The notes under the pieces: generated by a model | Databases searched by the model: none | What the model was told of the DNA's origin: nothing | Seen by the model: the letters and a program-made list of their open reading frames with translations, nothing else | Source of the DNA: Schmidtea nova | Lineage: Eukaryota | Assembly: GCA_044892505.1 (NCBI GenBank) | Contig: CM097882.1 | Coordinates: 451,918,001-451,982,000, forward strand | Reading direction: 5' to 3' | DNA: 64,000 nucleotides | Shown here: in pieces, positions 25,426-60,197 of the stretch | How positions within the stretch are numbered: position 1 is the first letter of the stretch | Layout: every line of letters begins with the position of its first letter | Position numbers and translations under genes: made by a program

Positions 25426-25805
25426 CAGTCGAATCAAATTTATTATCATGTTGGATCCACCATTTGGTCCACATTTAACATAAAAAATAATAATAAGAAG
25501 AAATAAATAGGAACAAATTAAATGAATATAATTACGAGAAATATCAGTAAAAAACGAATTAAAATGTAATAAAGACTATTAATTTAATATCAAAATTAGA
25601 AGAAAAGTAAATGGAAAATGTAAAAGTGTTAAAGAAAAATGATAGTTAATTATATTTAAATAATAAGAAAGCGAAATAAATAAGTAAAAAAAAGAAGAAG
25701 AATTAATAAAAATTCGGTAAATTAAAACAAGAAAATGAAAATCATATTTGTTAATAAAATTGATTTTATTTTTACTAGAATTGTATTGATGACCATCAGA
25801 TTGAT

Positions 25806-25850
25806 GCTGATTGGTCAATGAACTGATCTGGTCAGTATAAATACTGATCC
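25806..25850 (+). promoter_or_regulatory. LTR promoter: ATTGG (CCAAT box) + TATAAATA at 25836 (copy at 48039)
   Basis: CTGATTGGTCAAT...CAGTATAAATA(C)TGATCCA is conserved with the diverged solo LTR (57381-57426) while the surrounding sequence is not. Confidence 0.7.
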
Positions 25851-26029
25851 AGATTCAGATAATTTCAAGGTAGTTTATGTTACATTTTTTAACGTAAAGT
25901 TATATGCTCTTTTGAATCAAATTTTGCTATTGGAGGTATGCTTATTATTTTTGTTATATATATTTGTGAATTTTGTCATTGCCATTAGCTAAATAAAACT
26001 TCTTTTAAAAATATCTTATTTTTATTAAG

Positions 26030-26382
26030 CTTCTTCCACTGTGTAATCAGTGGAAGGAGATAAAGGTATTCATAGGATTTATCATAATTAAATTAAGCTT
26101 CTTCCACTGTGCAATCAGTGGAAGGAGACGACTCTATTTATATATTTATTTATCCTTTATTGAGCTTCTTCCATCGTGTAATCGGTGGAAGGAGGCAACA
26201 TTGTGTATGATATTAACAATTAGGTTGAAGAATATTTTTATAAACAATTTTTGGGTCGAGCTTCTTCCCCTGTGAAATCAGTGGAAGGAGGCGAATATAT
26301 ATATTATTTATATACAGTAGATACAGTAGAAATTACGTATGATTTAAGGGGCTCCGATCACCGTGCAATCGGTGAAATGGAG
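26030..26382 (+). other. Array of five ~12-bp-stem hairpins with TG(T/C/A)AAT hexaloop (copy at 48233-48585)
   Basis: CTTCTTCCACTG-TGYAAT-CAGTGGAAGGAG at 26030, 26098, 26165, 26261 and a variant at 26352, separated by unique AT-rich spacers. Confidence 0.85.
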
Positions 26383-26853
26383 GCATACTGTGCCGAGTAG
26401 AATGACTGCTCCGTACAGTTGGGCCGTCCGACCGGTGTATAGCGCCGTGAAGAGGGTAGGAATTTTTATTTTAACCATGATTTCTAACCTTATTTTTCAC
26501 TGGATAGTATAACCAGTTGAAGTTTTATTTTATAACCGATTTGATTTTATGAGTTTATAGTTGAGTAGAGTTTGATTTTAGTTTGAGACAGATATAGCTG
26601 CGATCTTATTAACCTGGTTTTACCTTGAGATTCACAGAGTGTTAACGTATATTTTTCGATTGTCACATCTGGGGTTTGTGGGCATAGAGCGGCAGATACA
26701 CGGTTAAGAATTTGTACAAAATACATTTTTTAAATATAACCATTTCAAAAATCGATAATTCAATAGCGTAGTGATCTACTACGCAAGTAACATAACAGCA
26801 ATAGGTTATAGGATCAAACATTCCACATAAATAATTAAATATAATTGCTTATC

Positions 26854-26989
26854 CTGAACCCTGTACATAGGGCAGTAGATCTTAGTTTATTTAACTAATT
26901 TTGTAACCTGATTGCTGTATATAGCACAGGCGTGAATAAATAAAATGTATTAAGAAATAAATGTATCTGATCGCTGTACATAGCGACAG
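26854..26989 (+). other. Array of three bulged hairpins with GTAYAT hexaloop (copy at 49057-49192)
   Basis: CTG-AA-CCCT-GTACAT-AGGG-CAG; CCTG-AT-TGCT-GTATAT-AGCA-CAGG; CTG-A-TCGCT-GTACAT-AGCGA-CAG. Confidence 0.8.
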
Positions 26990-27117
26990 TGTTGAAAGTG
27001 TAATAGGTAAATCATTTTCTTTTCCTGAATTAGCAATTAATAACTGTCAAAAGTATGAGAATCGTTCGAATCAAGACTACCAATTTCATGTTAATAAACC
27101 ATCTTGAATTTTAGAGA

Positions 27118-27711
27118 ATGTCAGCCAACACAGCAACTAATCAAGCCGAATTGGATAAAGCATGGAGGATAATTCGCAGCCTGGAAAAAGAAATGTTACG
27201 GAAATCTGAAAAATTAAAAGAAGCCGATGGCATAATCTCAAACCTGAAGAAAAGCTGGTTCAGTCCAGAGCAGATGAAAACACAAATTATAAAAAATCAA
27301 CGCTCACAGCGAGCAAACGAGGAGATCAAAATGGAATTGGACGCGACGAACATGGAACTAAAGAAATGTCTAAAATCTGTAACGGCGTCGTATTTAACTC
27401 AAGAGCTCAGCCAGCTCATTCGACCAATCACTTATCAGCATTGGGCTGACGAGAAAGCAGGATGCACAAAAGGAACGAACACCGAGGAACCATCTCAGGT
27501 TCGCGCAATAACAATAGCAGCAAGTACACCAAAGAACACGACAAATCCAGAAGGTAAAAGGAAGAAGAAGAGCAAGATGGGAGCGCGCCAGCGTCGCTGG
27601 AAGAAACAAGTTCTTCAGCAATTGGCACCGCAATCAAAAGAAATTCCCGAAATTGATCTAACTATGAACTTTGCAATATCGGATGAAGACATTACCAAAT
27701 ACTTTGAATAG
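27118..27711 (+). CDS. LTR-encoded 197-aa coiled-coil protein with an Arg/Lys-rich motif
   Basis: Intact ORF, identical in both LTRs, with a clear homologue at 59131-59727 (shared KSWF-P--MK, EL-KCL-SVTASY, IRPITYQ-W); basic motif KRKKKSKMGARQRRWKK. Confidence 0.85.
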   Translation: MSANTATNQAELDKAWRIIRSLEKEMLRKSEKLKEADGIISNLKKSWFSPEQMKTQIIKNQRSQRANEEIKMELDATNMELKKCLKSVTASYLTQELSQLIRPITYQHWADEKAGCTKGTNTEEPSQVRAITIAASTPKNTTNPEGKRKKKSKMGARQRRWKKQVLQQLAPQSKEIPEIDLTMNFAISDEDITKYFE

Positions 27712-28311
27712 GAATTCTGTGATTTAGTTATTTTCGCGTATTAAATAATTTTTGTTTTGTATTTATTTTATCGTAAAGTATATGAAATAGAGTGATTTAT
27801 TAAAAATTTAAAATAATTTAAAGGAAAATATAAATTAAATTAACTATACATTAGAATTAACAATAAGATTAACATAAATCTAATAAACAATAGAAACATT
27901 AAAGAGATAATATATTGTAATTGACTAAAGATTATTTGTTGATATTGTAAAGAAGGGGGCTGAAAGAAAAGTTGAAAGTTGAAATATATTGTAAAGAAAA
28001 GGGGGCTAAAGAAACATTGAAATGAAAGATAATGGATGCGGATAGATTAAAGTAAAAGCGTAAGTCCTTCTATCGGCAGCGAGACGAACCCGTGAACATA
28101 AATGGGGAGTAGTTTTAGCAATAGAGCTCACCTGCCCATCATTGTTCAAACACCTTGCACATTTCCAACTCGATTATTACAGGGAAATGATCGAGGGTGC
28201 TCGTGTGATATGTAAGCATTTTATGTGAGGTTTTGGATGGAGGAATCCCTAGAGCGTTTAGTTTAATTTTCTAATTTTGTTTTAACCCAATCCAGACCGA
28301 CAACATAAATT

Positions 28312-28329
28312 TGGAGGCTCAGCCGGGAT
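28312..28329 (+). promoter_or_regulatory. Primer-binding site TGGAGGCTCAGCCGGGAT (most similar to a tRNA-Pro 3' end)
   Basis: Starts TGG 6 nt after the LTR; resembles the animal tRNA-Pro PBS pattern TGGGGGCTCRWCCGGGAT. The tRNA identity is an inference. Confidence 0.75.
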
Positions 28330-28705: not shown

Positions 28706-29167
28706 ATGAACGACAAATTAAAAGAAATAGAAGAATTCTTAAACACGGAAAACAAAACATACGATGAACTATGCGAGAAAATAAGTCGAATAAGAGAATC
28801 CAGATTCAAAGAACCCATGACACAAACTGAAGAGACAACAGAGCTGATAAAAATAATGGAAAGAGTAGACAAAATAGATATAACAACTAGATACAAGTGG
28901 TACCGAACGAGAGTAGAAAATGCTGAGTTAAATATAAAATGCAGACAGTTAGAACAACAATTAACTCCAACATACCACAAGTGGACAATACAAGGAACTG
29001 AGACAGCCAAGAAATTTAAACTCTGTTACATATGTCGAGAAAGAGAGAATAAAATCATGTTTTTACCATGTGGACATTTCCGGTTTTGTGGAATCTGTGC
29101 AGCCAATTGCGACAAATGCCCGATGTGCAATCTCGAAATAGACGAAAGAATTATTGTGTATTTATAA
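28706..29167 (+). CDS. C-terminal RING (IAP/XIAP-type C3HC4) protein, no BIR domain
   Basis: CYICRERENKIMFLPCGHFRFCGICAANCDKCPMCNLEIDERIIVYL at the extreme C-terminus, preceded by coiled coil. Confidence 0.85.
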   Translation: MNDKLKEIEEFLNTENKTYDELCEKISRIRESRFKEPMTQTEETTELIKIMERVDKIDITTRYKWYRTRVENAELNIKCRQLEQQLTPTYHKWTIQGTETAKKFKLCYICRERENKIMFLPCGHFRFCGICAANCDKCPMCNLEIDERIIVYL

Positions 29168-29214
29168 TAAATAAATGATGAATTTAGTAATATTATTCGT
29201 AATAAATAAAATAT

Positions 29215-30577: not shown

Positions 30578-30579
30578 GG

Positions 30580-31419: not shown

Positions 31420-34400
31420 TTGAGATCAAGAGCAGTTAGTGCTACAATCGAAAAAGTTGATAATTCACAGAGAAATAAATCGAAACAAAGAGCAACCAGT
31501 GCTACAAAGAAAACAAATCCTAAAGGAAGTAAATCAAGAAGAGTAATAGTAGAAAAGTCAAAAATCGAAAACAGTAAATTAACAAAAACTAACGAAAGTG
31601 AAACAGAAGAAAGTTCAAGTGAAACCTACGATAATTATAATAATACGGAAGCATCAGATAACGAGTCAATAAACACAGAAGAAGTAGAAGCAGAAATTGA
31701 TAATAATTCAAACGAAACGAATAACGAGCATACTAGTGAAACAAGAGGAAACGAGAGTAAAACGACACAAGACAGCGGAATTGAAATGAACGAGCATAAA
31801 GAAGAAATCAAAGATAAATTTACTGGAGAACCATTCAATGGAGATGCCAGCAAGTTGGAAACGTTTTTAAAAGAATTTGGTATATTTGTAGAAGTATGTA
31901 AATGGAAACCAGAAACGATAAGGAGCAGAATTCAGTTATATTTAAAAGACAGTGCGTTAGACTTATATTTAGAAGCTAAAAATTCAGATGATCAACTTGA
32001 TAGTTGGGAAAAGATAAAGAATTTTTTCCAGCAAACGTTTGGAATAAATAAAGTATTAAATGAAGCATTTACAGAATTTTCAATGAGGAAACAAAAAGTT
32101 AATGAATCAAATGCAGTATATGCAAGTGAATTAAAGAAATTGGCTAAATTAGCATTTAATCAAAATAGTCCAATGAGTTCAGAATTAATGGCAGCAATTT
32201 TTGTGGGGGGATTGAGAAGACCCGATATAAGAGCACAAGTTGGATGCCAAGGTTGTAAAACAATAGATGAAGCGTTGGAAATCGCTAACAGATTTGAATT
32301 ACATATGATCGGAAGTGAAGGAAGAATTTACCTAGCAATGGATACGACACAAAATGAACAAGCAATGAAGATAAACAATCATATCCCGAATTCACAACAA
32401 TTAAACCGACCACCACCTCAAAGGAGAAATGAGGGAAACAAAGTACAAAATTTCGGAAACCAAAATAATTATAATACGCAAGGACAGACAAAGCAATGTC
32501 AAACCTGTGGAAAGTTAGGACATTGGCAACAAGAATGTTTCGTGAACTTAAATTGTAAAACGTGTGGAAGAAAAGGACATTCGGAAAATAGATGTTACCA
32601 AAGATCATGTTATAACTGTGGACAACCAGGTCATATGGCAAAGAATTGCCAACAACAAAACAACCAGCTAAGGAATTGGTCGAACAACGGAAATCGACAA
32701 AATTATGCGAATCAACAGAATAACGGAAACCGTCAGAGTTATGGAAATCAACAGAGTAATTATAACCAGAATAAAAGTACCACCAAAGAAATACATTTAT
32801 TACAAGAAGTTCAGAGATTGACAGAGTTAATAAATAATACACCGAGAGGAAATCAACAAACGAATCAACAACAAATGAATATGATGAGAAAAGTAGAAAG
32901 TGAAAACGAACGACTAAATCGAGAAAGTCAAGCACGACATGCTCAAGAATGGGCAAGAATACAAAGAGAAGACGAACAGAAACGACAAGAAAGAGAACGA
33001 CAACCATTGAGAATTAATATGATGAGAGCAACGAATCAAACAAGAGATAACAAAGAAGATATTGAACCAGAAACAAACCGGATAAACCCAAATCCGGAAG
33101 ATGAAGAAAACCAAAAAGAAATAGTACAAGAAAACGAAGAAGTTATTAAACAAAAAAGGATGTTGGTAGTCATGCCAAACGATCATGTATTTCGATTTGA
33201 ATATGATGAAAAAGAGGAAGTAGGAGTATTAATTAATAAAGTAAACAAGACGATTCCGGGAATGACGAAACTACCCCGAGAAGCAATTTTACAGACAGAA
33301 GACGAAGCAGCAATAAAATTGAAACCAACCGACATATGGAAAGATTTAGGAGTACCAATGAATAAAATGAAAGTCACAGTTATCCAGGAAATAGAAGAAA
33401 ATAACGATGAAGAGAAATCAAAACCAGTAACAAAAGTCAAAAGTAGAGCATTGAAGATATTTGAAGAGAGAATCAAACAGAGAAAAGCAATGGAGATAGA
33501 AAAACGAAGAGGCCAAATAGAAGAATCAGGAACCAATGACAAAAAGGAAGGAATACCACAAAAAAATGTACCAGATAAAGTAGAACAGACAGCACTCATT
33601 AATATGTTAAGAAACTTAACTAGAGAATTTTCAGATGTAGAAAGTGACAGTGATGTCAGTAGTTTAGCAGGAGATATGCTAAAAGAACCAGAAAATGAAG
33701 ACAACAAGATAGAAGTAGCGAAGACGCCAGAAAATATACAAATAAAAGAAGATGAAATTCAGAAACTATTAGATAATGCGTTAGAAGTGATTTATAACGA
33801 AGAATTTATTGATAAGAAGCGATATCGAAAATTTATAAGAGCAGTATTCCGAACGAACTATAAAGAACGGTTACAAAGTCGTGAATTAGAGATATTATCA
33901 GGATACGTCGTCAAACTATTAGAAGAACCACTCCACGAATACATAATTTTAATAGAAATAAACGAATGTTCACCAAGAATTTGGATCAAATCTCCATGCA
34001 CGAATGAAATTTATCGATGGGTAGAAGACAGATTGGGAAGTTCGTATAAAAACAAATTTATATATTCAGGAAACGAACTTGTAAGACGAGCAACGCATTT
34101 GGTAGAAACAGGCATATGGCCAGGAGAGATAAAAACATTATCAATATGCGACAATAAGAAAGAGGAGAATTTACAAGAAATTGCAAAGGAAGCAAATATG
34201 TGTTTTGAGATGAGAATTAAACCTCAGTTAGTAGAAAGGAAAGAAAGAATTCTTAGAGAAAATTTAAATTCACTAATAGAACAAATTATTCAACAAATCG
34301 ACAAGAATAGAGAAGAATTAACAAAAACTGAATATGAGAAATTAAAACAATGCATCGAAAATATACGAGATACCAGCCATACGAGACATTCGTCATACAA

Positions 34401-37400
34401 GACTTGGAAAGTGATCGCGAAAATGGGAAAAGCGATGTTTAAACGAGGAGAAATAGGAGATTTGAAAATCAAAGTGAAATTACCAAACGAGGACACAAAA
34501 GAAATTGAAGTAATCGCGGATTGCACAATAGAAGAATTAGTTGATGTTATCAATGAGACTTTATTACAACGGGAAAAAGAAGACGAATTAGAAGACGATA
34601 TCATCATGAAATATAATGAACACGTGCTAGGAGATCATGATGAGAGACGATTATATAAAATTGGCATATGGGATAATTACCAAACAATTCATGTTATCAG
34701 AATGGATGATACACCAAGAGAAACACCAAAAGATGAAAAAAGGAGACAAGAACGTCGAAGAGAAGAGATGCACAAACTAAGACAAATAATAGAAATTTAT
34801 CGAAGATGGCAGATACAGCCAGAATGGGAAAATGTTTTAGGAGAATTAAACTTCAACGAACGCCGATTAATACCAGTAGAGAAACACTGGGAGGTTAAAG
34901 AGAAATGCTGGAAAGCAAAAGGAGGTATATATGAAGAGGAATTTAGACCAGAAATGGAAGACAAATATGAACCAGAAATTAGAAGAGTTTGTATGGTGAC
35001 AAGAAAAGTCATGCCAACAGATTTAGATGGACCAGAAACCGCAGCAATATGGTTAGAAACGCAAAAACGAAAAGCTGACGAACTTATTGAATTACTAAAA
35101 GGAAACGTACAAGGAAAAAGGCGAACGATCAAAGGATTAGCCGAATTCTTTGTAGCAGGCGGCGAAGATATAATCAGTTTAAGAAAAGTAGCCAAGGTAG
35201 TAACAGAATATAAACGAGTTAACGAGTGGTGCCCAGAACAATTAGACAATGTAATCAAGAAATGGAGAAACCAAGAAAACTCCCAAGAACCACCGCAGAA
35301 AATACATTTAAGGATAATATATCCAGATCGAGAAAAAGAAGAACTTTGGGTAAGATTAACCGAAAAGATTCGAGATGTTAAAAAGAGATTAAAATATGAA
35401 CCACCATTTCATCTACAACATCAAGGACGATCACTAGAAAACGATATGGAAATTTGGATAACGCCAGCACAGTTAGAACTGGCAAATACGTTAACAGTAG
35501 ACGCAATAGCAGGTCAACCATTAAAACTTAAAGAGAAAAGAATAAAAGAAAGTGGAGATACTCAGAATCTAAGGAAGACGATGCAGATAAAACCAGGAAC
35601 AAGCGCAAGGCAGTACGAAACAACATCAATTAAAATCCAAGAAAGAACTCGACCACAACCATACGATACAGAAGAAATCTTAACAGACAGTGATGACATG
35701 CTAGAAGAATTAGCAAAATTGACAAAAGAAAAAGGCAATAATATTTTCGAAAGAGTACAAGAGTTACCTACAACATCACAAGCAATCAATACCCAAGATG
35801 AAGTTGAGCAAGAAATAGAGATAGAAGAAGTGAACGAAATCTCTGAAGAAGAAGCAAGAGGAGCAAATACAGAAAAGGAACGATTAACACAAGAAATGGA
35901 AAAATGGTGGGAACAGAGAAATAATGAACCAAGAGATGTTACAGAGGAAACTGGACGAGAAACCAGATTGATTGAAGCAGGTACAACAATGGATAGACGA
36001 CCTAGAGGTAGACCAAAGACTGATCCAGCCAACATAATCAACAAAACTAAAGAGGAAAGGAGACAAGAGAAATGGGAATTATGTTTAAAGAAACTCAACA
36101 AAATAGCAGAAGCAAAAGACCAGGAAATAACGCAAAAATGTCAAGGTGAAGGATGGATATCAAAAACACTAATGGAAATATTGGCGATAATTGATCCAGA
36201 ATTGAAAAAATGGTGGAGAATAAACGAAATAAGCGACAAGGCTAAAGCATTACATAGCGCAATCGCACCAATCTTACCCGAACTGATAAAAGAGAAGACA
36301 AAATCAAGCCATTTAGATTGGCAAGGGACCACAACGTTGATAAAGAGGTTAACTGAAGATGCAGAAAACGATAATAAATATGTGATAGCAATTGCGTATA
36401 CAATTTATAACTTATTAACATTGAGTAGAGGTAATCCAAAATCTATGGCAATAGAGAAACATATCAAAAATACGGCAGGCATCATAGCAAAAGAAATAGA
36501 ACCATACGTCATCAGTAAAGGAGGATGGGAAACATTTGTTAAAACGAATCAAAGAAACAGTCAAGCAAAGAATATGAAAAAGAAATTTGAAGAAATTTTA
36601 GGAGAATTAGAAAAAGAAAAGTCAGGAACAGGAGGTGGAAAACCTTCACTAAACCTGAATTCAATCATAATGATGATATTAATATGGCTAATTAGCGTTG
36701 AAGGAGCAACGGCGTTCGAAGTATTTGATTGCGACCAGATGGCATTAGGAGAAAAATATTCATTAAGAGGAACCGAACAATGCAAAGATGCAACTCCAAC
36801 AGAGCTAAAAGTACTACATAGTAAACAAATATATCACGTATATCAGGAAGCCGACTTAATAAAGACAACAGTTAATGAATGTAAAATATATAAAACAAGA
36901 TTTGCTTTTTATTGTGGACATCGCCACTACTCTGCAATCGTAATGCCAGGAACGGAAAGGGAAGCGATAATGTTACAAGGAGAAGATTGCAATAAATTGT
37001 TCAAACATGGAGAAGTCGAAACAAGAGATCGAATAAAGATAAGAGGAAAAGCTGGAGTAATACTACAACAAACATATTATGTAGCAGGAGCTATCACAGG
37101 AGGAGAAGGTTACTGTCAAGGAGCAACATATCCAATATTTGGAGTACCAGCAACTAACCTGGTAGTAATCGACACATACACGGTAGAATTAAAAGCGTAT
37201 GAAGCATATTTTGACCCAGCTACAGGAGAAATGAAGACGTTATCAATGTGCAAAATTGAAGCCAGTACTTGTCAAACCGGTATGTCAACTTTAACATACA
37301 GAGCAAAAGCAAATGAATGCCAATTACAATTATTAAAGGAAGCGGAGTTCGACGAGGTACAAGGAAAAATCTTTCAGGAAGAATATGATGATGAAGTAGC

Positions 37401-40400
37401 AAGAGGAAAACGTCTACAGGAGACAGTAAAAGGAGAGAAACCGTTCACAACTAAAGTACAAGAAAAAGAGGTGAGGATGAGGGAGACGCCAACAGTATTG
37501 GTTACATCAAACGCAAATATAGGAATGAGGTTTGTAAAAGGAAAACCGACATTAAAATGTGGTGTTTCTATGTTAGAAACGAATTACCCAGGTATTTATG
37601 TATCAAGACAAGCAGCACCAAATGCAAAACCCAAGGTAGATACTACAGACATCAAATTACACGTATATTTAAATAACAAATTGGATTTTTTATTTCACAA
37701 AGGCCAAGCATCAATGGAGAAAATATACTACGATCTCATTAACAGCGACTGTATATTGAACAGAGAAATATTAAAGACGAAATTAGCAGTAGCAATTACA
37801 AACCCGGATAGTGCTATGCCATTATTACCACTTAACGAAGGTCATTTTGGAAGAGTAGTTGGAGAAGTTATGTACGTATATATATGTCGAAAGACACAGG
37901 CAAACGTAGCAACAACGACCAGAATACGACAAGGACAATGTACCAATGAATTGGAAATTGAATATAAAGGGAAAATAAGATATGTACAACCAGTGACAAG
38001 GATCATTAATCCGGTCAGTTTTGAACCAAACCCTTTCAATTGCAGTAACGCATACGGACCACTATATCAGAAACCAGACGGAAATTGGGTCATGTTTCCG
38101 TCAAAATCAGAAGTACAACCACCTAGAGAATTTGAATTGATGCAACTTTCAAAAGGACGAAAATTTTCCAATATAGATGTAAATAATGGAGGAATTTACA
38201 GTGCAAAAGATCTCGAAGCAGCACGACAAAATATATTATTTCCAGCTAGGAGAGAAGCAGTATTATCTAGCATCGTAACGATAACAGGAGGAACAAGTTA
38301 TCAAGGAGGACCAAATTATGAATTATTACTGTCACCAGCACACTTTAGGAAAGCAACAGAAAATATGATGAAAGCAATGTGGGGACGATTTTTAATTTTC
38401 GGACAAATGATGGCCGGAATACTAGGTGTAATTTTAATCATACAAATAATACGAGTGATAATCACACAAATGCTAGCATGCTTTGATATTTATAAAAGAG
38501 AAAAGAAAGTTAATTGGAAATTAATAGCAGGATTTTTACCATTTTTAGCAAAAACGATGGTGTTACATGGTCACTCCAAAGATATTCACAGAATAAAACG
38601 ATTATTAAAAATACTGGCAAAAATGAAAGGAACGGATGAAGACGTGGGAAGAAAATTCAAAAAGATAATGACAGATGAACAAGCGAGACTACAATTAAAA
38701 AGAGAAAGAAAAGGATTATGGGAAAGAATAAGAGGAGATAAAACTCAAGATGATTCCAGTGATGACGATGATAACAATGACGACTGCGAAGGAGGGCAAA
38801 GGTACAGAAACCAAGCACCGCAATATAGCGACAAGAATCCAGCAGAAGCATGGAAATGTCACGCACCTCCACCAACAATGTACCAAGAACCATTACAGGT
38901 ATCAGGACACAGAGCAATGCAAATGATGCCAATGACAACTTTATATCCAATTATACCAGAAGATTATAAACTTAGACGATGTAGAAGTATGGATCCGCAA
39001 GACGATTCACTCACAATTGCAGTCATGACATCAAATATAGGACCAGTATTAACTACAACTATAGAAATAAATGGAAAAGAAATAGAAGCGATGATAGATA
39101 CAGGAGCAAATATTTCGGCGATAGATATCAAATGGATACCGCAAGAACAGAGACAAGAAATCGAAAGAACAAATGTTCATGTAATCGCATGTAGCAAAGA
39201 GATAGTTGAAGTTGCAGGAAGATGGTGGATAAAAATACGACACCAAAATATAGAAATCGAAACGTATGTAGCAGTAATACCAGCTTTAAGCGTACCATGT
39301 ATAATCGGAACAGATTTAATGCCAACACTATTTAAAGAAATAATCATCGATCTTGGAACAATGAGATTAAAGGACAGAACAGGGAAAATATGTGCTATGG
39401 AAGCAAAAGTAATAAACTCGAAACAAATAATGATACCGGAAGAAAGAATCATGACGAGATCACAAACAGTCAGAATAAATATGCTCAGAGCAGAGGAAAT
39501 TAACACAACTAGTCAAGTAGAAAGTGAGAAAATCGATGTTGACAAAGAAATCGTACGAAAAGCCAAAGAAATAAACGAAAGATGGGAAATCAGACAAGAA
39601 AAAGACGTATTATGGGATATACGACAAATAATTAGTGATTACGCACGAGGATGCCCAACCAAACCAATCATAATAGAATTACTAAAGAAAATACCAGAGA
39701 TACTCGTATTACAAGATACAGGAAGTGCAACTGCACTACACAATGCCATAAGTTGGGGTAAAACGGAAAAAGTAAAAGAATTTTTGAAAATAGCAAAAGA
39801 AACGAATCAAAATCTAGACATTGTAAATCGAGAATTAGAAACGCCAATGATGACAGCAACACTAAGCTTAGCAGATAAAGAAATAGTAGATATGCTGATC
39901 AACGCAGAATTCAACTGGACAGCTCGTGATAGAAGAGGAAACACAGTTTTAAACCATGCAATAATGAGTGAAAATCAAATGATACTAAAACATATAACAA
40001 CCAACCTCACATGGGAAATCGATGAATTAATCAAAGGAGAAATTATGAAGGAAGCGATTCGGAAAGGAAACACTAAAACCATATGGAAACTAATACAATG
40101 GAAATGGCCGAATAATAAAACATGGGTATTAGATATAAACAAAGAATTTAGCGAAGGACAGAACGCGCTATTGAGATACTTATTAGAGTTTACGTGCGAT
40201 CAGAGAACAATGTTAGCACTAATAAATAGAGGAAAAATAAATATTAGTAAAAACGAAGAGGAATATAAACTAGAAGTCGAAAAGAAAGCGTTATTCAGGA
40301 AAATTTGGATATGGTGTCAAAAACAACTACGCAAAGACATAAGCTACAAAAATCTAAATGATTTCCAAGAAAAGTATAAAACGATAATAAAGGAATACAA

Positions 40401-40656
40401 GAAGCTAGTGGAGATATTAAACGATCCAGAAAAATTTAATCAAGCAATAAATCAGAAAGAAGAAGAAAGTAAAAGGATACTCACACCATTGTTCAACGCG
40501 AAGCTAGATTACCAAGAAAGATTAGATGCAATACACAAAAAAGCAAAGGAACTATTACCAGAATTCAAAAATACTAAATACGCCTTGGAAATACTTGGCG
40601 CGATAGTAGAAAAGTACACGCGTACGCGAAAGGAATATATAATGGAAACGACATAA
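31420..40656 (+). CDS. 3078-aa polyprotein: Gag - 3x CCHC - ubiquitin-like domains - AT-hook - Bcl-2-like - signal/TM - chuvirus-type fusion glycoprotein - TM - retropepsin - ankyrin repeats; true start uncertain
   Basis: Gag FNGDASKLETFLKEF..QLYLKDSALD; CQTCGKLGHWQQEC, CKTCGRKGHSENRC, CYNCGQPGHMAKNC; RRPRGRPK; EPYVISKGGWETFV; VEGATA|FEVFDC; FGQMMAGILGVILII; AMIDTGANISAI..IIGTDLM; TALHNAISWG, RGNTVLNHAI. The frame is open from 31327, but the first ATG is about 120 codons in. Confidence 0.92.
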   Translation: MRSRAVSATIEKVDNSQRNKSKQRATSATKKTNPKGSKSRRVIVEKSKIENSKLTKTNESETEESSSETYDNYNNTEASDNESINTEEVEAEIDNNSNETNNEHTSETRGNESKTTQDSGIEMNEHKEEIKDKFTGEPFNGDASKLETFLKEFGIFVEVCKWKPETIRSRIQLYLKDSALDLYLEAKNSDDQLDSWEKIKNFFQQTFGINKVLNEAFTEFSMRKQKVNESNAVYASELKKLAKLAFNQNSPMSSELMAAIFVGGLRRPDIRAQVGCQGCKTIDEALEIANRFELHMIGSEGRIYLAMDTTQNEQAMKINNHIPNSQQLNRPPPQRRNEGNKVQNFGNQNNYNTQGQTKQCQTCGKLGHWQQECFVNLNCKTCGRKGHSENRCYQRSCYNCGQPGHMAKNCQQQNNQLRNWSNNGNRQNYANQQNNGNRQSYGNQQSNYNQNKSTTKEIHLLQEVQRLTELINNTPRGNQQTNQQQMNMMRKVESENERLNRESQARHAQEWARIQREDEQKRQERERQPLRINMMRATNQTRDNKEDIEPETNRINPNPEDEENQKEIVQENEEVIKQKRMLVVMPNDHVFRFEYDEKEEVGVLINKVNKTIPGMTKLPREAILQTEDEAAIKLKPTDIWKDLGVPMNKMKVTVIQEIEENNDEEKSKPVTKVKSRALKIFEERIKQRKAMEIEKRRGQIEESGTNDKKEGIPQKNVPDKVEQTALINMLRNLTREFSDVESDSDVSSLAGDMLKEPENEDNKIEVAKTPENIQIKEDEIQKLLDNALEVIYNEEFIDKKRYRKFIRAVFRTNYKERLQSRELEILSGYVVKLLEEPLHEYIILIEINECSPRIWIKSPCTNEIYRWVEDRLGSSYKNKFIYSGNELVRRATHLVETGIWPGEIKTLSICDNKKEENLQEIAKEANMCFEMRIKPQLVERKERILRENLNSLIEQIIQQIDKNREELTKTEYEKLKQCIENIRDTSHTRHSSYKTWKVIAKMGKAMFKRGEIGDLKIKVKLPNEDTKEIEVIADCTIEELVDVINETLLQREKEDELEDDIIMKYNEHVLGDHDERRLYKIGIWDNYQTIHVIRMDDTPRETPKDEKRRQERRREEMHKLRQIIEIYRRWQIQPEWENVLGELNFNERRLIPVEKHWEVKEKCWKAKGGIYEEEFRPEMEDKYEPEIRRVCMVTRKVMPTDLDGPETAAIWLETQKRKADELIELLKGNVQGKRRTIKGLAEFFVAGGEDIISLRKVAKVVTEYKRVNEWCPEQLDNVIKKWRNQENSQEPPQKIHLRIIYPDREKEELWVRLTEKIRDVKKRLKYEPPFHLQHQGRSLENDMEIWITPAQLELANTLTVDAIAGQPLKLKEKRIKESGDTQNLRKTMQIKPGTSARQYETTSIKIQERTRPQPYDTEEILTDSDDMLEELAKLTKEKGNNIFERVQELPTTSQAINTQDEVEQEIEIEEVNEISEEEARGANTEKERLTQEMEKWWEQRNNEPRDVTEETGRETRLIEAGTTMDRRPRGRPKTDPANIINKTKEERRQEKWELCLKKLNKIAEAKDQEITQKCQGEGWISKTLMEILAIIDPELKKWWRINEISDKAKALHSAIAPILPELIKEKTKSSHLDWQGTTTLIKRLTEDAENDNKYVIAIAYTIYNLLTLSRGNPKSMAIEKHIKNTAGIIAKEIEPYVISKGGWETFVKTNQRNSQAKNMKKKFEEILGELEKEKSGTGGGKPSLNLNSIIMMILIWLISVEGATAFEVFDCDQMALGEKYSLRGTEQCKDATPTELKVLHSKQIYHVYQEADLIKTTVNECKIYKTRFAFYCGHRHYSAIVMPGTEREAIMLQGEDCNKLFKHGEVETRDRIKIRGKAGVILQQTYYVAGAITGGEGYCQGATYPIFGVPATNLVVIDTYTVELKAYEAYFDPATGEMKTLSMCKIEASTCQTGMSTLTYRAKANECQLQLLKEAEFDEVQGKIFQEEYDDEVARGKRLQETVKGEKPFTTKVQEKEVRMRETPTVLVTSNANIGMRFVKGKPTLKCGVSMLETNYPGIYVSRQAAPNAKPKVDTTDIKLHVYLNNKLDFLFHKGQASMEKIYYDLINSDCILNREILKTKLAVAITNPDSAMPLLPLNEGHFGRVVGEVMYVYICRKTQANVATTTRIRQGQCTNELEIEYKGKIRYVQPVTRIINPVSFEPNPFNCSNAYGPLYQKPDGNWVMFPSKSEVQPPREFELMQLSKGRKFSNIDVNNGGIYSAKDLEAARQNILFPARREAVLSSIVTITGGTSYQGGPNYELLLSPAHFRKATENMMKAMWGRFLIFGQMMAGILGVILIIQIIRVIITQMLACFDIYKREKKVNWKLIAGFLPFLAKTMVLHGHSKDIHRIKRLLKILAKMKGTDEDVGRKFKKIMTDEQARLQLKRERKGLWERIRGDKTQDDSSDDDDNNDDCEGGQRYRNQAPQYSDKNPAEAWKCHAPPPTMYQEPLQVSGHRAMQMMPMTTLYPIIPEDYKLRRCRSMDPQDDSLTIAVMTSNIGPVLTTTIEINGKEIEAMIDTGANISAIDIKWIPQEQRQEIERTNVHVIACSKEIVEVAGRWWIKIRHQNIEIETYVAVIPALSVPCIIGTDLMPTLFKEIIIDLGTMRLKDRTGKICAMEAKVINSKQIMIPEERIMTRSQTVRINMLRAEEINTTSQVESEKIDVDKEIVRKAKEINERWEIRQEKDVLWDIRQIISDYARGCPTKPIIIELLKKIPEILVLQDTGSATALHNAISWGKTEKVKEFLKIAKETNQNLDIVNRELETPMMTATLSLADKEIVDMLINAEFNWTARDRRGNTVLNHAIMSENQMILKHITTNLTWEIDELIKGEIMKEAIRKGNTKTIWKLIQWKWPNNKTWVLDINKEFSEGQNALLRYLLEFTCDQRTMLALINRGKINISKNEEEYKLEVEKKALFRKIWIWCQKQLRKDISYKNLNDFQEKYKTIIKEYKKLVEILNDPEKFNQAINQKEEESKRILTPLFNAKLDYQERLDAIHKKAKELLPEFKNTKYALEILGAIVEKYTRTRKEYIMETT

Positions 40657-44155: not shown

Positions 44156-44251
44156 TCAAATTGTAGCGGAAAATTGTATATATGTAAAAATAAAACTCTA
44201 GAAAAATCAAAAACAAAGAACAAATCAATGTGTGTATATATTATTGTAGAA

Positions 44252-45607
44252 ATGGATAAAGAGGAACGAGCAGTCGAGATTTTGAGAGCAGCAAACAGAA
44301 ATTGGAACAAGAGATTTGTATGTGGATATTGTAATAATTTATTACGGAAACCAAAGCAAACCGCCTGTGGATGTAGATTATGCACCAGATGTGTACAAAT
44401 GTTAGAACTAAAGAAAATAACAGAATGTCCAGAATGTAAAGAAGGACAAATAGTATTAGACGAAACAAGACCAGATAGAGCAACTCAGAGAGAAATCATG
44501 AGCATATTAATTGAATGTATAAATCCACCGTGCATATGGCAAGGACAAATCAGCGAAATTGAAAATCATATAGAAAATTGTGAAGAAAAGAGAAGCGAAT
44601 GTGAAAAGTGTAAAGAAACGATAATTTTAAAAGACAAAGAGAAACACAGAGGTGAATGCAAAGAGGAAGAAATCGCATGTGAATATTGCGAAATTCGAGA
44701 AACAAGGAGAAAATTTGAAGAGGAGCACATCAATATAAAAGAAGAGAGAATATGCGAACAGTATGTAGGAGTGTGCCCAAACAAATGTGAAATTACCGAA
44801 GAAGTGAAATTACGAGAACATTGGGAAAAGTGTACAGAAATACCAAGAGAATGTCCTTACAACAGATATGGATGCAAGGAAAAGAAGTCTCAACAAAATA
44901 TGAAACAACATTTAGAAACAGAAGCAATCAATCATATTGAAATGACAGACAGAACAATTCAGAAATTAGAAAAAGAAGTGGAATCTCATAAAATAATGAT
45001 GAACCTATTATTAGAAACGAGAGAACAGTTTGAATTAACCCGAAGAAAGATGGAAAAGAAAATAATAGCCATCAAGGAATTAGCAAAAGGAATGAAAGTG
45101 CAATATAACAAGTTAATACAAGAAATTGATGAGAAAAAAGATTTACCAATAGCACCTTATGTGTGGAAAATAACGGATTTCCGAAATAAATTGGAAGATG
45201 CACGAAGCTTCAAGAAAACTGCGGTAATAAGCCCACCATTTTACTTATGGAAAAACGGGGCTAAAGTGAGATTGAAAGTATACCCAAACGGAGATGGGAC
45301 AAGTATTGGAAAACACGTATCGATATTTTTTGCGTTTTGCAAAGGAGAATATGACGATTTAATCGATTGGCCGATAGGAGTAGGAGTAATGATAAAAATC
45401 AGGGGTTTAAACGAGACCATAGAAAAGAGATTCACGACAGAAAAAGGAGCAGTTACGAGTAACAGACCAACAGAAGAATGTGGATTAGCAAGTGGAGAAC
45501 CACACTTTGTATTACAAAGCAAGATATGGGGATTATTGTATGAGGACACCTTATACATAGAAATGGAAAGGAACGAGAAGGCAGATAGAAAAGGATGGTT
45601 GGCGTAG
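44252..45607 (+). CDS. TRAF-family protein (RING, TRAF zinc fingers, coiled coil, MATH/TRAF-C), intronless
   Basis: CGYCNNLLRKPKQTACGCRLCTRC..CPEC; C-N--C-W-G-----E-H---C; PYVWKITDF..ISPPFY....AKVRLKVYPNGDG...GKHVSIFF..KGEYDDLIDWP. The likely ATG is 44252 (alternative 44228; the frame is open from 44174). Confidence 0.95.
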   Translation: MDKEERAVEILRAANRNWNKRFVCGYCNNLLRKPKQTACGCRLCTRCVQMLELKKITECPECKEGQIVLDETRPDRATQREIMSILIECINPPCIWQGQISEIENHIENCEEKRSECEKCKETIILKDKEKHRGECKEEEIACEYCEIRETRRKFEEEHINIKEERICEQYVGVCPNKCEITEEVKLREHWEKCTEIPRECPYNRYGCKEKKSQQNMKQHLETEAINHIEMTDRTIQKLEKEVESHKIMMNLLLETREQFELTRRKMEKKIIAIKELAKGMKVQYNKLIQEIDEKKDLPIAPYVWKITDFRNKLEDARSFKKTAVISPPFYLWKNGAKVRLKVYPNGDGTSIGKHVSIFFAFCKGEYDDLIDWPIGVGVMIKIRGLNETIEKRFTTEKGAVTSNRPTEECGLASGEPHFVLQSKIWGLLYEDTLYIEMERNEKADRKGWLA

Positions 45608-47648: not shown

Positions 47649-50508
47649 TGTTGGATCCACCATTTGGTCCACATTTAACATAAAAAATAATAATAATAAT
47701 AAGAAATAAATAGGAACAAATTAAATGAATATAATTACGAGAAATATCAGTAAAAAACGAATTAAAATGTAATAAAGACTATTAATTTAATATCAAAATT
47801 AGAAGAAAAGTAAATGGAAAATGTAAAAGTGTTAAAGAAAAATGATAGTTAATTATATTTAAATAATAAGAAAGCGAAATAAATAAGTAAAAAAAAGAAG
47901 AAGAATTAATAAAAATTCGGTAAATTAAAACAAGAAAATGAAAATCATATTTGTTAATAAAATTGATTTTATTTTTACTAGAATTGTATTGATGACCATC
48001 AGATTGATGCTGATTGGTCAATGAACTGATCTGGTCAGTATAAATACTGATCCAGATTCAGATAATTTCAAGGTAGTTTATGTTACATTTTTTAACGTAA
48101 AGTTATATGCTCTTTTGAATCAAATTTTGCTATTGGAGGTATGCTTATTATTTTTGTTATATATATTTGTGAATTTTGTCATTGCCATTAGCTAAATAAA
48201 ACTTCTTTTAAAAATATCTTATTTTTATTAAGCTTCTTCCACTGTGTAATCAGTGGAAGGAGATAAAGGTATTCATAGGATTTATCATAATTAAATTAAG
48301 CTTCTTCCACTGTGCAATCAGTGGAAGGAGACGACTCTATTTATATATTTATTTATCCTTTATTGAGCTTCTTCCATCGTGTAATCGGTGGAAGGAGGCA
48401 ACATTGTGTATGATATTAACAATTAGGTTGAAGAATATTTTTATAAACAATTTTTGGGTCGAGCTTCTTCCCCTGTGAAATCAGTGGAAGGAGGCGAATA
48501 TATATATTATTTATATACAGTAGATACAGTAGAAATTACGTATGATTTAAGGGGCTCCGATCACCGTGCAATCGGTGAAATGGAGGCATACTGTGCCGAG
48601 TAGAATGACTGCTCCGTACAGTTGGGCCGTCCGACCGGTGTATAGCGCCGTGAAGAGGGTAGGAATTTTTATTTTAACCATGATTTCTAACCTTATTTTT
48701 CACTGGATAGTATAACCAGTTGAAGTTTTATTTTATAACCGATTTGATTTTATGAGTTTATAGTTGAGTAGAGTTTGATTTTAGTTTGAGACAGATATAG
48801 CTGCGATCTTATTAACCTGGTTTTACCTTGAGATTCACAGAGTGTTAACGTATATTTTTCGATTGTCACATCTGGGGTTTGTGGGCATAGAGCGGCAGAT
48901 ACACGGTTAAGAATTTGTACAAAATACATTTTTTAAATATAACCATTTCAAAAATCGATAATTCAATAGCGTAGTGATCTACTACGCAAGTAACATAACA
49001 GCAATAGGTTATAGGATCAAACATTCCACATAAATAATTAAATATAATTGCTTATCCTGAACCCTGTACATAGGGCAGTAGATCTTAGTTTATTTAACTA
49101 ATTTTGTAACCTGATTGCTGTATATAGCACAGGCGTGAATAAATAAAATGTATTAAGAAATAAATGTATCTGATCGCTGTACATAGCGACAGTGTTGAAA
49201 GTGTAATAGGTAAATCATTTTCTTTTCCTGAATTAGCAATTAATAACTGTCAAAAGTATGAGAATCGTTCGAATCAAGACTACCAATTTCATGTTAATAA
49301 ACCATCTTGAATTTTAGAGAATGTCAGCCAACACAGCAACTAATCAAGCCGAATTGGATAAAGCATGGAGGATAATTCGCAGCCTGGAAAAAGAAATGTT
49401 ACGGAAATCTGAAAAATTAAAAGAAGCCGATGGCATAATCTCAAACCTGAAGAAAAGCTGGTTCAGTCCAGAGCAGATGAAAACACAAATTATAAAAAAT
49501 CAACGCTCACAGCGAGCAAACGAGGAGATCAAAATGGAATTGGACGCGACGAACATGGAACTAAAGAAATGTCTAAAATCTGTAACGGCGTCGTATTTAA
49601 CTCAAGAGCTCAGCCAGCTCATTCGACCAATCACTTATCAGCATTGGGCTGACGAGAAAGCAGGATGCACAAAAGGAACGAACACCGAGGAACCATCTCA
49701 GGTTCGCGCAATAACAATAGCAGCAAGTACACCAAAGAACACGACAAATCCAGAAGGTAAAAGGAAGAAGAAGAGCAAGATGGGAGCGCGCCAGCGTCGC
49801 TGGAAGAAACAAGTTCTTCAGCAATTGGCACCGCAATCAAAAGAAATTCCCGAAATTGATCTAACTATGAACTTTGCAATATCGGATGAAGACATTACCA
49901 AATACTTTGAATAGGAATTCTGTGATTTAGTTATTTTCGCGTATTAAATAATTTTTGTTTTGTATTTATTTTATCGTAAAGTATATGAAATAGAGTGATT
50001 TATTAAAAATTTAAAATAATTTAAAGGAAAATATAAATTAAATTAACTATACATTAGAATTAACAATAAGATTAACATAAATCTAATAAACAATAGAAAC
50101 ATTAAAGAGATAATATATTGTAATTGACTAAAGATTATTTGTTGATATTGTAAAGAAGGGGGCTGAAAGAAAAGTTGAAAGTTGAAATATATTGTAAAGA
50201 AAAGGGGGCTAAAGAAACATTGAAATGAAAGATAATGGATGCGGATAGATTAAAGTAAAAGCGTAAGTCCTTCTATCGGCAGCGAGACGAACCCGTGAAC
50301 ATAAATGGGGAGTAGTTTTAGCAATAGAGCTCACCTGCCCATCATTGTTCAAACACCTTGCACATTTCCAACTCGATTATTACAGGGAAATGATCGAGGG
50401 TGCTCGTGTGATATGTAAGCATTTTATGTGAGGTTTTGGATGGAGGAATCCCTAGAGCGTTTAGTTTAATTTTCTAATTTTGTTTTAACCCAATCCAGAC
50501 CGACAACA
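47649..50508 (+). repeat. 3' LTR (2860 bp)
   Basis: Same sequence at offset 22200/22203; the encoded proteins are identical. Confidence 0.95.
49321..49914 (+). CDS. 3' LTR copy of the 197-aa LTR protein
   Basis: Identical translation to 27118-27711. Confidence 0.85.
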   Translation: MSANTATNQAELDKAWRIIRSLEKEMLRKSEKLKEADGIISNLKKSWFSPEQMKTQIIKNQRSQRANEEIKMELDATNMELKKCLKSVTASYLTQELSQLIRPITYQHWADEKAGCTKGTNTEEPSQVRAITIAASTPKNTTNPEGKRKKKSKMGARQRRWKKQVLQQLAPQSKEIPEIDLTMNFAISDEDITKYFE

Positions 50509-56851: not shown

Positions 56852-58138
56852 TGTGTATTAATTAATTTTTTATGTGTTTTTGTTATTAAATTTGTTTTTT
56901 TTTGGTGTTTCCTGTTGATAATTTAAATTCACTTCGATCCGCTACGATTAAACAAGACTTGATTAGGTTTAGTTTTTGCCCAATAATGCTATTCAAAATA
57001 TATTTTTTGGAAAATGAAGGGGGTAGATGTTAGTGTTGGGCCCGCCAAATCACCTAAAATCACAATAAAAGAACGAAAGCATGAAACAATAAGGAAATAA
57101 TAAACATAAAAATAACAATAAAAACAAATTAAAAATAAGAATAAAATGACAAATAATATTTGATAAGTTTCCAGCAAAAGGAAATTTTGAAAATAAGCCG
57201 GTAAACAACAGCAAAGGGGGGCCTGAAATAAAAAAAGATAGAATTAAATAAACTAATAGTACAAATAATTAATTAATTACTCGAAAAATCAGGACCACCC
57301 AGCGAGAAACCGGAAAAGGAAACAAAATAATATTTAGGTTTAAATAAAATAACAAAAATACTTTGATGGACGGTCTGATCCTGATTGGTCAATCCAACCA
57401 GACGGATCAGTATAAATACCGATCCAAAAACCACAACTTAACTTTTTCACTAAAACTTAACTGTTAGATAAAATCTTTACAAAACGCACTTTGTACTAGA
57501 ACTATTACCAGAAACGATTTTCGAGGAACAGTCTTAATTTTCAAATCCGAAGAAACATTCAAGTACGGAACGTAACATTTTAATTTTGTTTTATTATTGT
57601 ATATTGATGTTAATGTACCCATGATTTTTCATCCATTATAATTTTACGAAACTTTTATTTTTCTTCTATCTTAATTTAACCATGCATATAGTTATACTTC
57701 CTAGGCTGCTCACGCGGCGAGGGAGTCCGAGTCGTCGTTGTGGGGCCTCACGGTCTCACATGGTGGTTCAACCTTTTTAGTATTCATTTTAGATTTAGAA
57801 TTTTATTTGATAATATGACTGAATTTTGATCTAATCCAGACAATTTACTAATGATAATTAAATTATTTAATTCTGGGTTGCACAGAGGATGAGTGTCGAG
57901 GGCTAAATAGTGAAAATGCGGAGAGCAGCTTGATAATGGGGAACACCCAAGGGGAGGGTGTACTCAGCATCATAACGCGTAGTAAAATGAGCCGAAACTG
58001 AACCTCCAGCATGGAGAACAGTGACAAACAAAAAGAATTAATTCAAATAATTTCGATAGAATGGAAAATTTCAATCATGATTAAAGTCCGATTTCATTCG
58101 GAACTAGCACCTCACATACATAGTCACAAGATCGATAA

Positions 58139-58355
58139 ATTCCGATCGCATTAGAATGCGACGGAAAATCCAAATCAAATCAAGAGAATCTAAAAATAGA
58201 CCGATCGTCGTACATGGCGCGGATCACCTAATTTATCTTCCGATCGCTGTATATAGCGCGGAGAATTTTTGAATAAATTTTAGGCTTCCTGAATGCTGTA
58301 CATAGCACAGGACTAATTATGAATTCCTTATTTCCGACCGTGGTAGATCACGGCG
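58139..58355 (+). other. Five bulged hairpins, four with GTAnAT loop, in the solo LTR
   Basis: CCG-AT-CGTC-GTACAT-GGCG-CGG (58201), TCCG-AT-CGCT-GTATAT-AGCG-CGGA (58239), TCCTG-AA-TGCT-GTACAT-AGCA-CAGGA (58287), CCGTG-GTAGAT-CACGG (58338), TCCG-A-TCGCA-TTAGAA-TGCGA-CGGA (about 58141). Confidence 0.8.
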
Positions 58356-58475
58356 AGACAAATAAATATAATCATATTTTAGACCAATTTTTGTTGTTTT
58401 ACGTGGTATCAGTAAATCATCCTACAAATTTTCCTCCGATAAACTCTATGTTTTATATTCGATAACCTAATACAG

Positions 58476-58955
58476 ATGTCGACAGCTGAGATTATGGACA
58501 AATTGACCCAAATGCGGAATTTGGAACAAGGAAGTGCAGAGAATGGAACGGTCTCTCAACTCAAGGAGCTACCTGCACCGATATTGCGGACCCTCAACGC
58601 TCAAATGTACAAGTGGAGACACGGGTTCGGTCGAAAATGCCCGTTTTCCATATGGGCTGGAGGAAGCGATCAGGTACTCTACCGGGGAGGACCGAATTGG
58701 CCAATTTCCCAAAGGCCTTACTCGAACAAATTTGGACAAATAATCGTGGTGATAAAGGACGCAGAAGGACGATCGAGTCGAATAATTTATTGGGGACATA
58801 TCCCTCGCCGAGAGTTATGCCAATTGGGACTACAAGCGTTTCTACCGCGGAAACCGTTTGGCAAGGAATGTCAGAAGGGACAACCCCCATTTTCTTGGGC
58901 TCGACTGCGGCGGATGCTGATCAACAACGAACTACACTGCCTATTTCGGCGATAA
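58476..58955 (+). CDS. 159-aa ORF of unknown function inside the solo LTR
   Basis: GC-elevated intact ORF with ATG directly after CAG; no motif recognised; no counterpart in the 2.86-kb LTR. Confidence 0.45.
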   Translation: MSTAEIMDKLTQMRNLEQGSAENGTVSQLKELPAPILRTLNAQMYKWRHGFGRKCPFSIWAGGSDQVLYRGGPNWPISQRPYSNKFGQIIVVIKDAEGRSSRIIYWGHIPRRELCQLGLQAFLPRKPFGKECQKGQPPFSWARLRRMLINNELHCLFRR

Positions 58956-59130
58956 AATTTTATAACAATGATAATTATAAATAAAAATCTTATTGTTTCT
59001 CAATGGTCTTGGTTTTGAATTTCTGAATTATTAAATCTATCATGTTCTCGATTAAAAAATCATTTACTCATATTGAAATTTTAAGCATTTTTTAAAGCGA
59101 CAAAGGCAATTATTTTAAATCAATTATAGA

Positions 59131-59727: not shown

Positions 59728-60197
59728 ATAAATTCTCGTATTATCGTCAAATTTTTGTTGTTTACCTAAATTAGTTTAGTTAATGGAATAAATAATAATA
59801 TACCTGTGATATAAAAAATATAACTTTACAATACAAAACACCTAAGACAGGCAAATAAATAATTAAAGGAGCACTCGGATAACAAACTTCATGCAGAATA
59901 AGTGATGTTAAAGACAAATTTTCTGAAAGTTTATTGTGGAGTACCTAAGTAGATGATTAAAGCGTAAGTCCTTCTAACGGCAGCAATGAACCCGTAAACA
60001 TAAATGGGGAGTAGTACTAGCGATAGTGCTCACCTGCCCATCATTGTTTAACCACCCTGCGCATCACCAACTTGATTATATAGGGAAATAATCAAGGGCG
60101 CTTGAGTGTATAATTGCAATTTTATGTATGATCATGGATGAGGGATCCCTAGCCATTGTTAGAGCATTTTTCATCTAACCCCTCCATGAACCCAGCA

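Follow-up and report, generated by a model that had tools for sequence, protein, structure and literature searches.

Long terminal repeats (LTRs) are generally taken as non-coding, and the locus analysed here raises the question of why intact, conserved open reading frames (ORFs) lie inside them. The window, that is, the whole 64,000-nucleotide (nt) stretch of Schmidtea nova DNA under study, holds such ORFs in two diverged LTR families; we call the gene ORF-X. An earlier note, made from the letters alone, had read them as a regulatory gene that is kept by purifying selection and that every solo LTR can still express. We find that ORF-X is a gene located in LTRs of at least four families, is under purifying selection and has been lost in one pol-containing lineage.

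A gene under purifying selection inside LTRs

In family A, the gene occurs in both LTRs of a 25-kb element (25449-50508), which is bounded by the 4-bp target duplication ATCA and whose LTRs are identical apart from one substitution and a 3-nt indel. The family B copy lies in a solo LTR. The main parts of both are the following.

25449..28305, forward strand: 5' LTR of the family A, Burro-like element, 2857 nt, TG..CA
27118..27711, forward strand: ORF-X of family A, an intact 197-aa ORF starting at LTR +1670
28312..28329, forward strand: primer-binding-site-like motif, presumably tRNA-Pro-like; 625 exact genome matches, control 0
28706..29167, forward strand: RING-finger accessory ORF, 153 aa (PF13920, E 1e-11)
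31786..40656, forward strand: Gag - fusion glycoprotein - protease - ankyrin polyprotein (domain scan)
44228..45607, forward strand: TRAF-like accessory ORF with RING, zf-TRAF and MATH (domain scan)
47634-47648: purine-rich tract-like motif, abutting the 3' LTR on its upstream side
47649..50508, forward strand: 3' LTR of family A, 2860 nt, carrying ORF-X
49321-49914: second ORF-X copy, in the 3' LTR, identical to the copy at 27118-27711
57034..60198, forward strand: family B solo LTR of 3165 nt, flanked by TTAG
58476..58955, forward strand: ORF-U, a second LTR gene, 159 aa; found in B, B2, C and D, missing from A
59131..59727, forward strand: ORF-X of family B, intact, 198 aa, inside the solo LTR

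By its layout, the window element is a Burro-like gypsy. The portion of the Burro/GYPSM1 description that we draw on gives a ~5000-aa polyprotein with a fusion glycoprotein between Gag and protease, RT, RNase H (RH), integrase (IN) and ankyrin, together with separate RING and TRAF ORFs and multi-kb LTRs (PMC6431247). The polyprotein order, the RING and MATH/TRAF ORFs and the multi-kb LTRs are all matched here, and the complete polyprotein is present in a sibling copy (RVP, RVT_1, RNase H, integrase, Ank and fusion glycoprotein in ~4990 aa, open frames summed by coordinates). The window copy differs in that its polyprotein lacks RT, RNase H and integrase in the domain scan; of the proteins that were scanned, none matched a BIR domain. 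The same portion of the description names no LTR-internal gene (PMC6431247). Because the ~3-kb RT-RH-IN gap (window ~39445) recurs in 8/8 other ~22-kb copies checked, the window element belongs to a pol-less lineage, the copies of which retain Gag, fusion glycoprotein, protease and cargo; the window's Gag has zinc knuckles (domain scan). At 29870-30588, in the spacer that separates the RING ORF from Gag, ~17 units of 41 nt are arrayed in tandem, and a 25-nt array lies at 29185-29413.

Both ORFs proved intact, at 197 and 198 aa, and their products share 42% identity over 171 aa (BLASTP, E 1e-38). The reported gap-free alignment was reproduced between residues 4-117 and 2-115, with 54/114 positions identical, a value matched by 0/10,000 shuffles, and DNA identity of the two genes by codon position is 63/68/35%. 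The flanking LTR DNA, described as largely unalignable, is so overall, except for two well-aligned stretches, a 199-nt 3' segment (81%) and a 51-nt promoter segment (80%); besides these, short weak pieces align between the A and B LTRs outside the ORF.

Homologs occur at 19-90% identity to the window protein. We delimited families A, A3, B, B2, C and D, whose members measure 187-198 aa and share 20 invariant columns, including W47, F48, P50, G155, R159 and R160; further, more distant relatives exist in broken form. Genome protein searches, in which the best 150 of 8689-9830 candidates were scored, found stops in 8/150 (A) and 21/150 (B) of these copies, a biased sample, and the D-family protein retrieved close D copies only. 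Sampling by the primer-site motif is independent of protein sequence: of the first 30 of its 625 matches along the genome, 20 are preceded by an ORF-X homolog and 10 are not. A 12-nt motif of the LTR 3' RNA has 5658 genome matches (control, 8). ORF-X is 19-22% identical between A and D; for RT, the identity between families is 93-94%.

The proposed purifying selection was borne out by dN/dS, which is ~0.1-0.15 in three families rather than near 1, also with copies picked by non-coding DNA; all values are pairwise, transition-weighted Nei-Gojobori estimates on non-independent pairs and are thus descriptive. Across divergence bins, family A gave 0.09-0.17 (52 distinct of 70 copies) and family B 0.11-0.33 (29 of 30 copies), and family D gave 0.13 (19 distinct of 24 copies). 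Within family A, dS reaches ~1 at dN below 0.1. When 30 copies, two of them the window's own, were chosen by a non-coding segment, 23/30 were intact and dN/dS was 0.14 on 25 distinct sequences; in that sample, the four out-of-register frames gave 1.6-2.6, the in-register reverse frame gave 0.27, and variable columns by codon position numbered 42/34/124. By region (A, B and D), dN/dS is ~0.10 in the coiled coil, 0.34-0.43 in the linker, 0.04-0.06 in the basic motif and 0.01-0.19 in the tail, placing the Arg/Lys motif among the most constrained parts of ORF-X. Nine pol-less elements gave 0.15, a value to which LTR exchange may contribute, because their internal DNA is 96-99% like the sibling, yet dS of the LTR gene is 0.3.

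After insertion, the picture changes. In 38 sister-LTR pairs, we counted 16 non-synonymous and 10 synonymous changes, which fit neutral decay (neutrality, P=0.11; dN/dS of 0.14 rejected, P=0.002). The claim that every solo LTR can express the protein was overstated: of the first 30 LTR-motif matches in genome order, 18 have an ORF-X homolog, 7 intact and 11 broken (one further match re-read a neighbour's gene and was dropped; the 5' end was unlocated for 12). It holds in a weaker form: of five solos confirmed through their target duplication, four retain Y-box, TATA and an intact ORF, and many young solo LTRs could express ORF-X. Taken together, the neutral sister-LTR changes and the broken copies indicate that selection works on replicating lineages and that integrated loci decay.

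Three D-derived copies with 1.57-kb LTRs have lost both LTR genes and kept RING, Gag and pol domains, with open frames of 1999, 1850 and 930 aa; ~410 unrelated nt stand in place of the two genes. In seven further elements (7/30 of the first primer-site matches), the ~5.5 kb that follow the primer site contain no ORF >120 aa; the sequence that these elements share is mainly the primer site and the final ~270 nt of the LTR. Since gene-less, pol-containing elements have spread, ORF-X is unnecessary in cis. Its companion ORF-U (158-211 aa, upstream of ORF-X) has conserved C-x-F, G-x3-W and LG motifs and a dN/dS of 0.23 in B (29 copies), and is lost in family A.

Putative promoter and splicing route, and a conserved RNA

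The sequence around ORF-X offers a possible route of expression and a candidate RNA partner, the relevant features being as follows.

25807..25843, forward strand: Y-box (CTGATTGG) and TATA-like box in a palindrome, the putative LTR promoter
26012..26390, forward strand: a hairpin repeated four times plus a fifth, related hairpin, restricted to family A; z -4.9 and -3.7
26850..26998, forward strand: three bulged hairpins with tips UGUAHAUA, clustered in A, A3, B and B2
27109..27114, forward strand: TTTTAG acceptor-like site, putative 3' splice site, 3 nt ahead of the ATG
28058..28252, forward strand: conserved structured RNA, ~195 nt, common to all families and gene-less elements
59962..60152, forward strand: family B copy of the structured RNA

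A Y-box/TATA pair stands at LTR +375 to +400 in 13/13 LTRs (A, A3, B, B2, C, D and short D), upstream of ORF-X, and no other Y-box/TATA is conserved. The TATA-like box is surrounded by an inverted repeat (25827-25853, 57402-57426) that is found in all families and whose flanks co-vary. The distance from the conserved TATA to ORF-X is 1.25-1.9 kb, which puts the gene well into the putative transcript, and the position of the Y-box/TATA points to R/U5 as its probable location.

Between TATA and ORF-X there are 13-43 ATGs, and a YAG ends 1-5 nt before the chosen ORF-X ATG in 10/10 copies, as compared with 87/579 other LTR ATGs; this count is partly post hoc, as 6/10 copies have an in-frame ATG further upstream and the shared-start ATG was chosen. 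Because the YAG adjoins the ATG and so many ATGs precede it, the arrangement suggests that ORF-X is expressed by splicing. ORF-U likewise has a YAG 0-7 nt ahead of its ATG in 7/8 copies, and internal YAGs precede RING, TRAF (at the second Met) and two further ORFs; Gag has none and the last ORF has AAG. In an intact sibling, the 3' accessory ORFs are 73-122 nt apart, and each spacer contains UGUAHAUA 15-19 nt past the stop. The window itself shows an operon-like row of accessory ORFs at 43697-46892, with UGUAHAUA soon after the stops and AG before most next ATGs. ORF spacing and YAGs together would fit either alternative cis-splicing or operon-like spliced-leader trans-splicing, a process described, in the portions of the sources used, for S. 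mediterranea (PMC12582326) and for the Cer1 mRNA (PMC3315495). Upstream of ORF-X, the families have no splice donor in common. A conserved poly(A) signal could not be placed, and four contig runs of unknown kind, an uninformative sample, had no GT-AG joint among the listed joints (15 of 33).

The most widely shared RNA feature is the 195-nt segment near the LTR 3' end, which is 97-98% conserved among 22 A copies, the ORF there being 85-91% conserved. In 15 sequences, from which its structure was also read, 20/38 named pairs change on both sides; this occurred in 0/500 shuffles, and slid controls gave 2-4. We regard the segment as a candidate packaging, export or 3'-end signal; a search of Rfam gave nothing credible for it. 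A proposed 3' pseudoknot was set aside as unproven, being only 62% paired, with alignment shifts in the loop. The segment starts with a donor-like GTAAG in A, B and C, not in D.

The family A leader hairpins, 140-550 nt past TATA, have variants that keep G-U and none with A-C, which argues for plus-strand RNA. No leader element common to all families was found. The UGUAHAUA tips carry what we take to be a Pumilio-type motif; as a main ORF-X target, these hairpins were dropped, since no cluster occurs in C or D.

The ORF-X protein and readings of its function

Three parts of the protein can be told apart.

27124..27459, forward strand: predicted parallel coiled coil, aa 3-114, with an invariant W47-F48-x-P50 kink
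27553..27615, forward strand: Arg/Lys-rich motif, aa 146-166, around invariant G155, R159 and R160
27616..27708, forward strand: acidic-hydrophobic tail, a short predicted helix

AlphaFold, run with an input of 16 sequences, placed helices at 3-47, 50-100, 103-114 and 156-173 plus a short terminal one, with a low-confidence stretch at 118-148 (mean pLDDT 74.5; pTM low, 0.28 and 0.31). Modelling two copies of aa 1-120 yielded a parallel, in-register coiled coil with a score of 0.52 (best of three controls, 0.00), contact agreement of at least 91% and pLDDT of at least 81 across runs. The mark was reached by 17/29 eukaryotic solved pairs and 0/30 solved single chains, and coiled coils may pass this test through likeness to solved ones. 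ORF-X is therefore predicted to dimerise through aa 5-95, and its remainder to consist of a disordered linker and a basic helix. Both features pointed out in the earlier note recur in 16/16 aligned members: a basic patch with a net charge of +8 to +10 over 18 aa, and an acidic tail with a net charge of -1 to -6. A conserved nuclear export signal (NES) pattern was not found in the families: A and D match at different places, B, B2 and C not at all, and 46-84% of shuffled tails match. ORF-X has no Cys-rich or known DNA-binding domain. A bZIP assignment was rejected, as the coiled coil is N-terminal and the basic motif follows a 30-aa low-confidence linker, the reverse of the bZIP order; bZIP_1 gave one weak match (E 0.075) in 1/16 members.

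Relatives outside these elements did not emerge. Searches for ORF-X homologs were blank with the single protein and also with alignment queries at near and longer lengths, in libraries possibly poor in planarian repeat proteins, and a full HMMER scan of 1.84 billion representatives gave 0 matches at E<=0.001. Among PDB sequences, one scan found none at E<=1 and the other reached a best E of 0.67, for a designed peptide; Pfam matches stayed below cut-off, and searches of metagenome and viral contigs were blank. The ESM Atlas yielded no ORF-X hit at 0.9 and nothing usable for ORF-U, for which Pfam and PDB scans were blank. By structure, Foldseek of the ORF-X model against BFVD and PDB found none at E<=0.001, and VIA-align found generic coiled coils only (best Z 6.8, spanning aa 1-108).

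As to function, the anatomy of ORF-X makes the regulatory role proposed in the earlier note plausible. We tentatively lean towards the view that the product of this selected accessory gene, a predicted dimer, plays an RNA role like that of Rev, Rex or CERV. Transcription would start at the promoter at LTR +390, and a short mRNA would form by cis- or spliced-leader trans-splicing to the YAG ahead of the ORF-X ATG. Two arginine-rich helices of the coiled-coil dimer would then bind the element's own RNA, and the bound full-length genome RNA would escape splicing and leave the nucleus, as with Rev, Rex and CERV, with the protein acting in trans. Such a regulator would be needed because a 22-27-kb genome RNA must skip acceptor-like sites at the LTR genes and at most internal accessory ORFs. 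The 195-nt structured RNA is the best candidate target, because it is the sole sequence kept by all families and gene-less elements; hairpin arrays are poor universal targets because they are family-specific, one set bearing the presumed Pumilio-type motif. Acceptor skipping, a dimeric protein with a constrained Arg-rich helix, trans action and a universal RNA are what favours this role.

Against the Rev-like reading speaks the lack of a conserved NES pattern, while Rev, Rex and Rem, according to the part of the source used, all recruit CRM1 (PMC12789967). Moreover, the basic motif may do no more than direct the protein to the nucleus or nucleolus, the 195-nt RNA may instead serve in packaging or act like a CTE to which Gag or host proteins bind, and ORF-X could be dispensable in the short-LTR D lineage rather than supplied in trans. 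At best, ORF-X would work like Rev, by analogy with that family. The lack of a conserved NES pattern keeps activator, host-modulator and RNA-chaperone readings in play.

The activator reading, which we consider rather unlikely, casts ORF-X as a Tat-, Tax- or Tas-like trans-activator of LTR transcription: through its basic helices, the dimer would bind RNA of the leader or DNA of the promoter, and host co-activators would be recruited by the amphipathic, acidic tail. It would account for a tail that is constrained and not NES-like, for plus-strand hairpins downstream of TATA in family A and for a TATA inside a palindrome in all families, and the Gly-then-basic layout of ORF-X resembles the Tat motif. 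However, the leader hairpins are not common to the families, whereas the basic motif is; ORF-X has neither a Cys-rich nor a known DNA-binding domain, and its order of coiled coil and basic motif is opposite to that of bZIP.

Unlikely, in our estimate, is a host-modulating or anti-silencing protein, with the coiled coil as decoy or scaffold and the basic motif only for nuclear entry. ORF-X diverges far faster between families than RT and is dispensable in cis, both as would suit such a role; the element carries ubiquitin- and apoptosis-type cargo (RING, TRAF, ankyrin), in keeping with the portion of the Burro description used (PMC6431247), and Burro RNA is under PIWI control as far as the cited excerpt goes (PMC8532177). 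A plain localisation signal, however, need not be so constrained in three families, with an invariant Gly.

We see little likelihood in an RNA chaperone or packaging cofactor, similar in action to delta antigen or a second nucleocapsid, that would oligomerise, would coat or fold the very long genome RNA and would promote its dimerisation or strand transfer over a multi-kb LTR. The unusual length of leader and LTR would fit such a role, and in size, N-terminal coiled coil with Trp/Pro kink and basic motif ORF-X recalls delta antigen. The coiled coil of delta antigen is antiparallel, though, unlike the parallel ORF-X dimer model; in addition, zinc knuckles are already present in Gag, and pol-containing elements spread without the gene.

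Domestication, with solo-LTR copies retained by the host to serve its own needs, is very improbable: there are thousands of LTRs, most verified solos are intact, and a different Burro1 gene has been reported to benefit the host (PMC13465017, citing Lee et al. 2026), but sister-LTR changes look neutral and 11/18 sampled copies are broken. A non-functional frame maintained by recent amplification, for which many young copies with sister LTRs >99% identical might be quoted, has next to no probability and is excluded by dN/dS (dS ~1 against dN <0.1 in A), the frame-specific signal, regional constraint and the conservation of frame and motifs across families at ~20% identity.

Extending the Rev-like reading, one may picture the Burro LTR as a self-contained operon, in which one or two orphan genes resolved by the host's spliced-leader trans-splicing (a Rev-like switch and a partner) sit beside their response RNA, and solo LTRs, as a rule dead ends, serve as trans helpers to pol elements that dropped the genes and to RNA-only parasites; we hold this extension to be doubtful.

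Relation to known systems and neighbouring features

LTR-encoded genes (sag, nef) and a gypsy export protein (CERV) are already known, as the portions of the sources used attest (PMC12789967, PMC10309623). MMTV sag and the HIV nef overlap are also LTR-coded and hence present twice per provirus and left in solos (PMC12789967, in part). They lie in U3, upstream of the LTR promoter, whereas ORF-X lies downstream of TATA, usually behind a second gene. In the excerpts used, CERV of Cer1 (C. elegans) is a novel gypsy-type protein made from a spliced, partly SL1 trans-spliced mRNA (PMC10309623, PMC3315495), is predicted to multimerise and is needed for export of unspliced RNA that skips its own splice sites (PMC10309623). 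By that description, CERV has 517 aa, a start shared with Gag, a location in the internal region and a Cys loop; ORF-X, by contrast, is an LTR gene for a protein of ~195 aa with an Arg-rich motif, and the role of CERV is shown whereas that of ORF-X is predicted. With Rev, Rex, Rem and Rec, as outlined in part of one source, ORF-X shares small size and basic character (PMC12789967). Its modelled dimer would parallel their multimerisation, and the 195-nt RNA is a candidate counterpart of their structured RNA elements, of which RexRE likewise sits in the LTR (PMC12789967). An arginine-rich motif, as in those proteins, is present in 16/16 ORF-X members. ORF-X differs in having no conserved NES pattern, a long, predicted parallel coiled coil, a gene in the LTR and a gypsy lineage rather than Retroviridae.

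In the literature searched, we found no one- or two-gene orphan cassette downstream of a gypsy LTR promoter; Repbase or primary Burro papers may already annotate these ORFs. For gypsy elements, hardly any regulators of the kind seen in complex retroviruses are known; CERV is the case found. Here, selected orphan genes, usually two, lie past the LTR promoter in thousands of LTRs in the type of genome of a stem-cell model. They offer a way to approach how the RNA of a 22-27-kb retroelement evades its many splice sites, and whether proteins acting in trans come from solo LTRs; with the covarying 195-nt RNA, a candidate for the target or for a packaging signal is already at hand.

Two further features of the window lie outside the Burro-like element. 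An element with ~470-nt inverted ends and an internal 831-nt duplication (51603-54575) contains a 338-aa ORF (53401-54417), which we take to be Penelope-like; Pfam support for this ORF is absent. The family B solo LTR is followed 660 nt downstream, on the same strand, by an intronless 553-aa ORF (60861-62522) for a TGF-beta type I receptor-like kinase with a GS motif.
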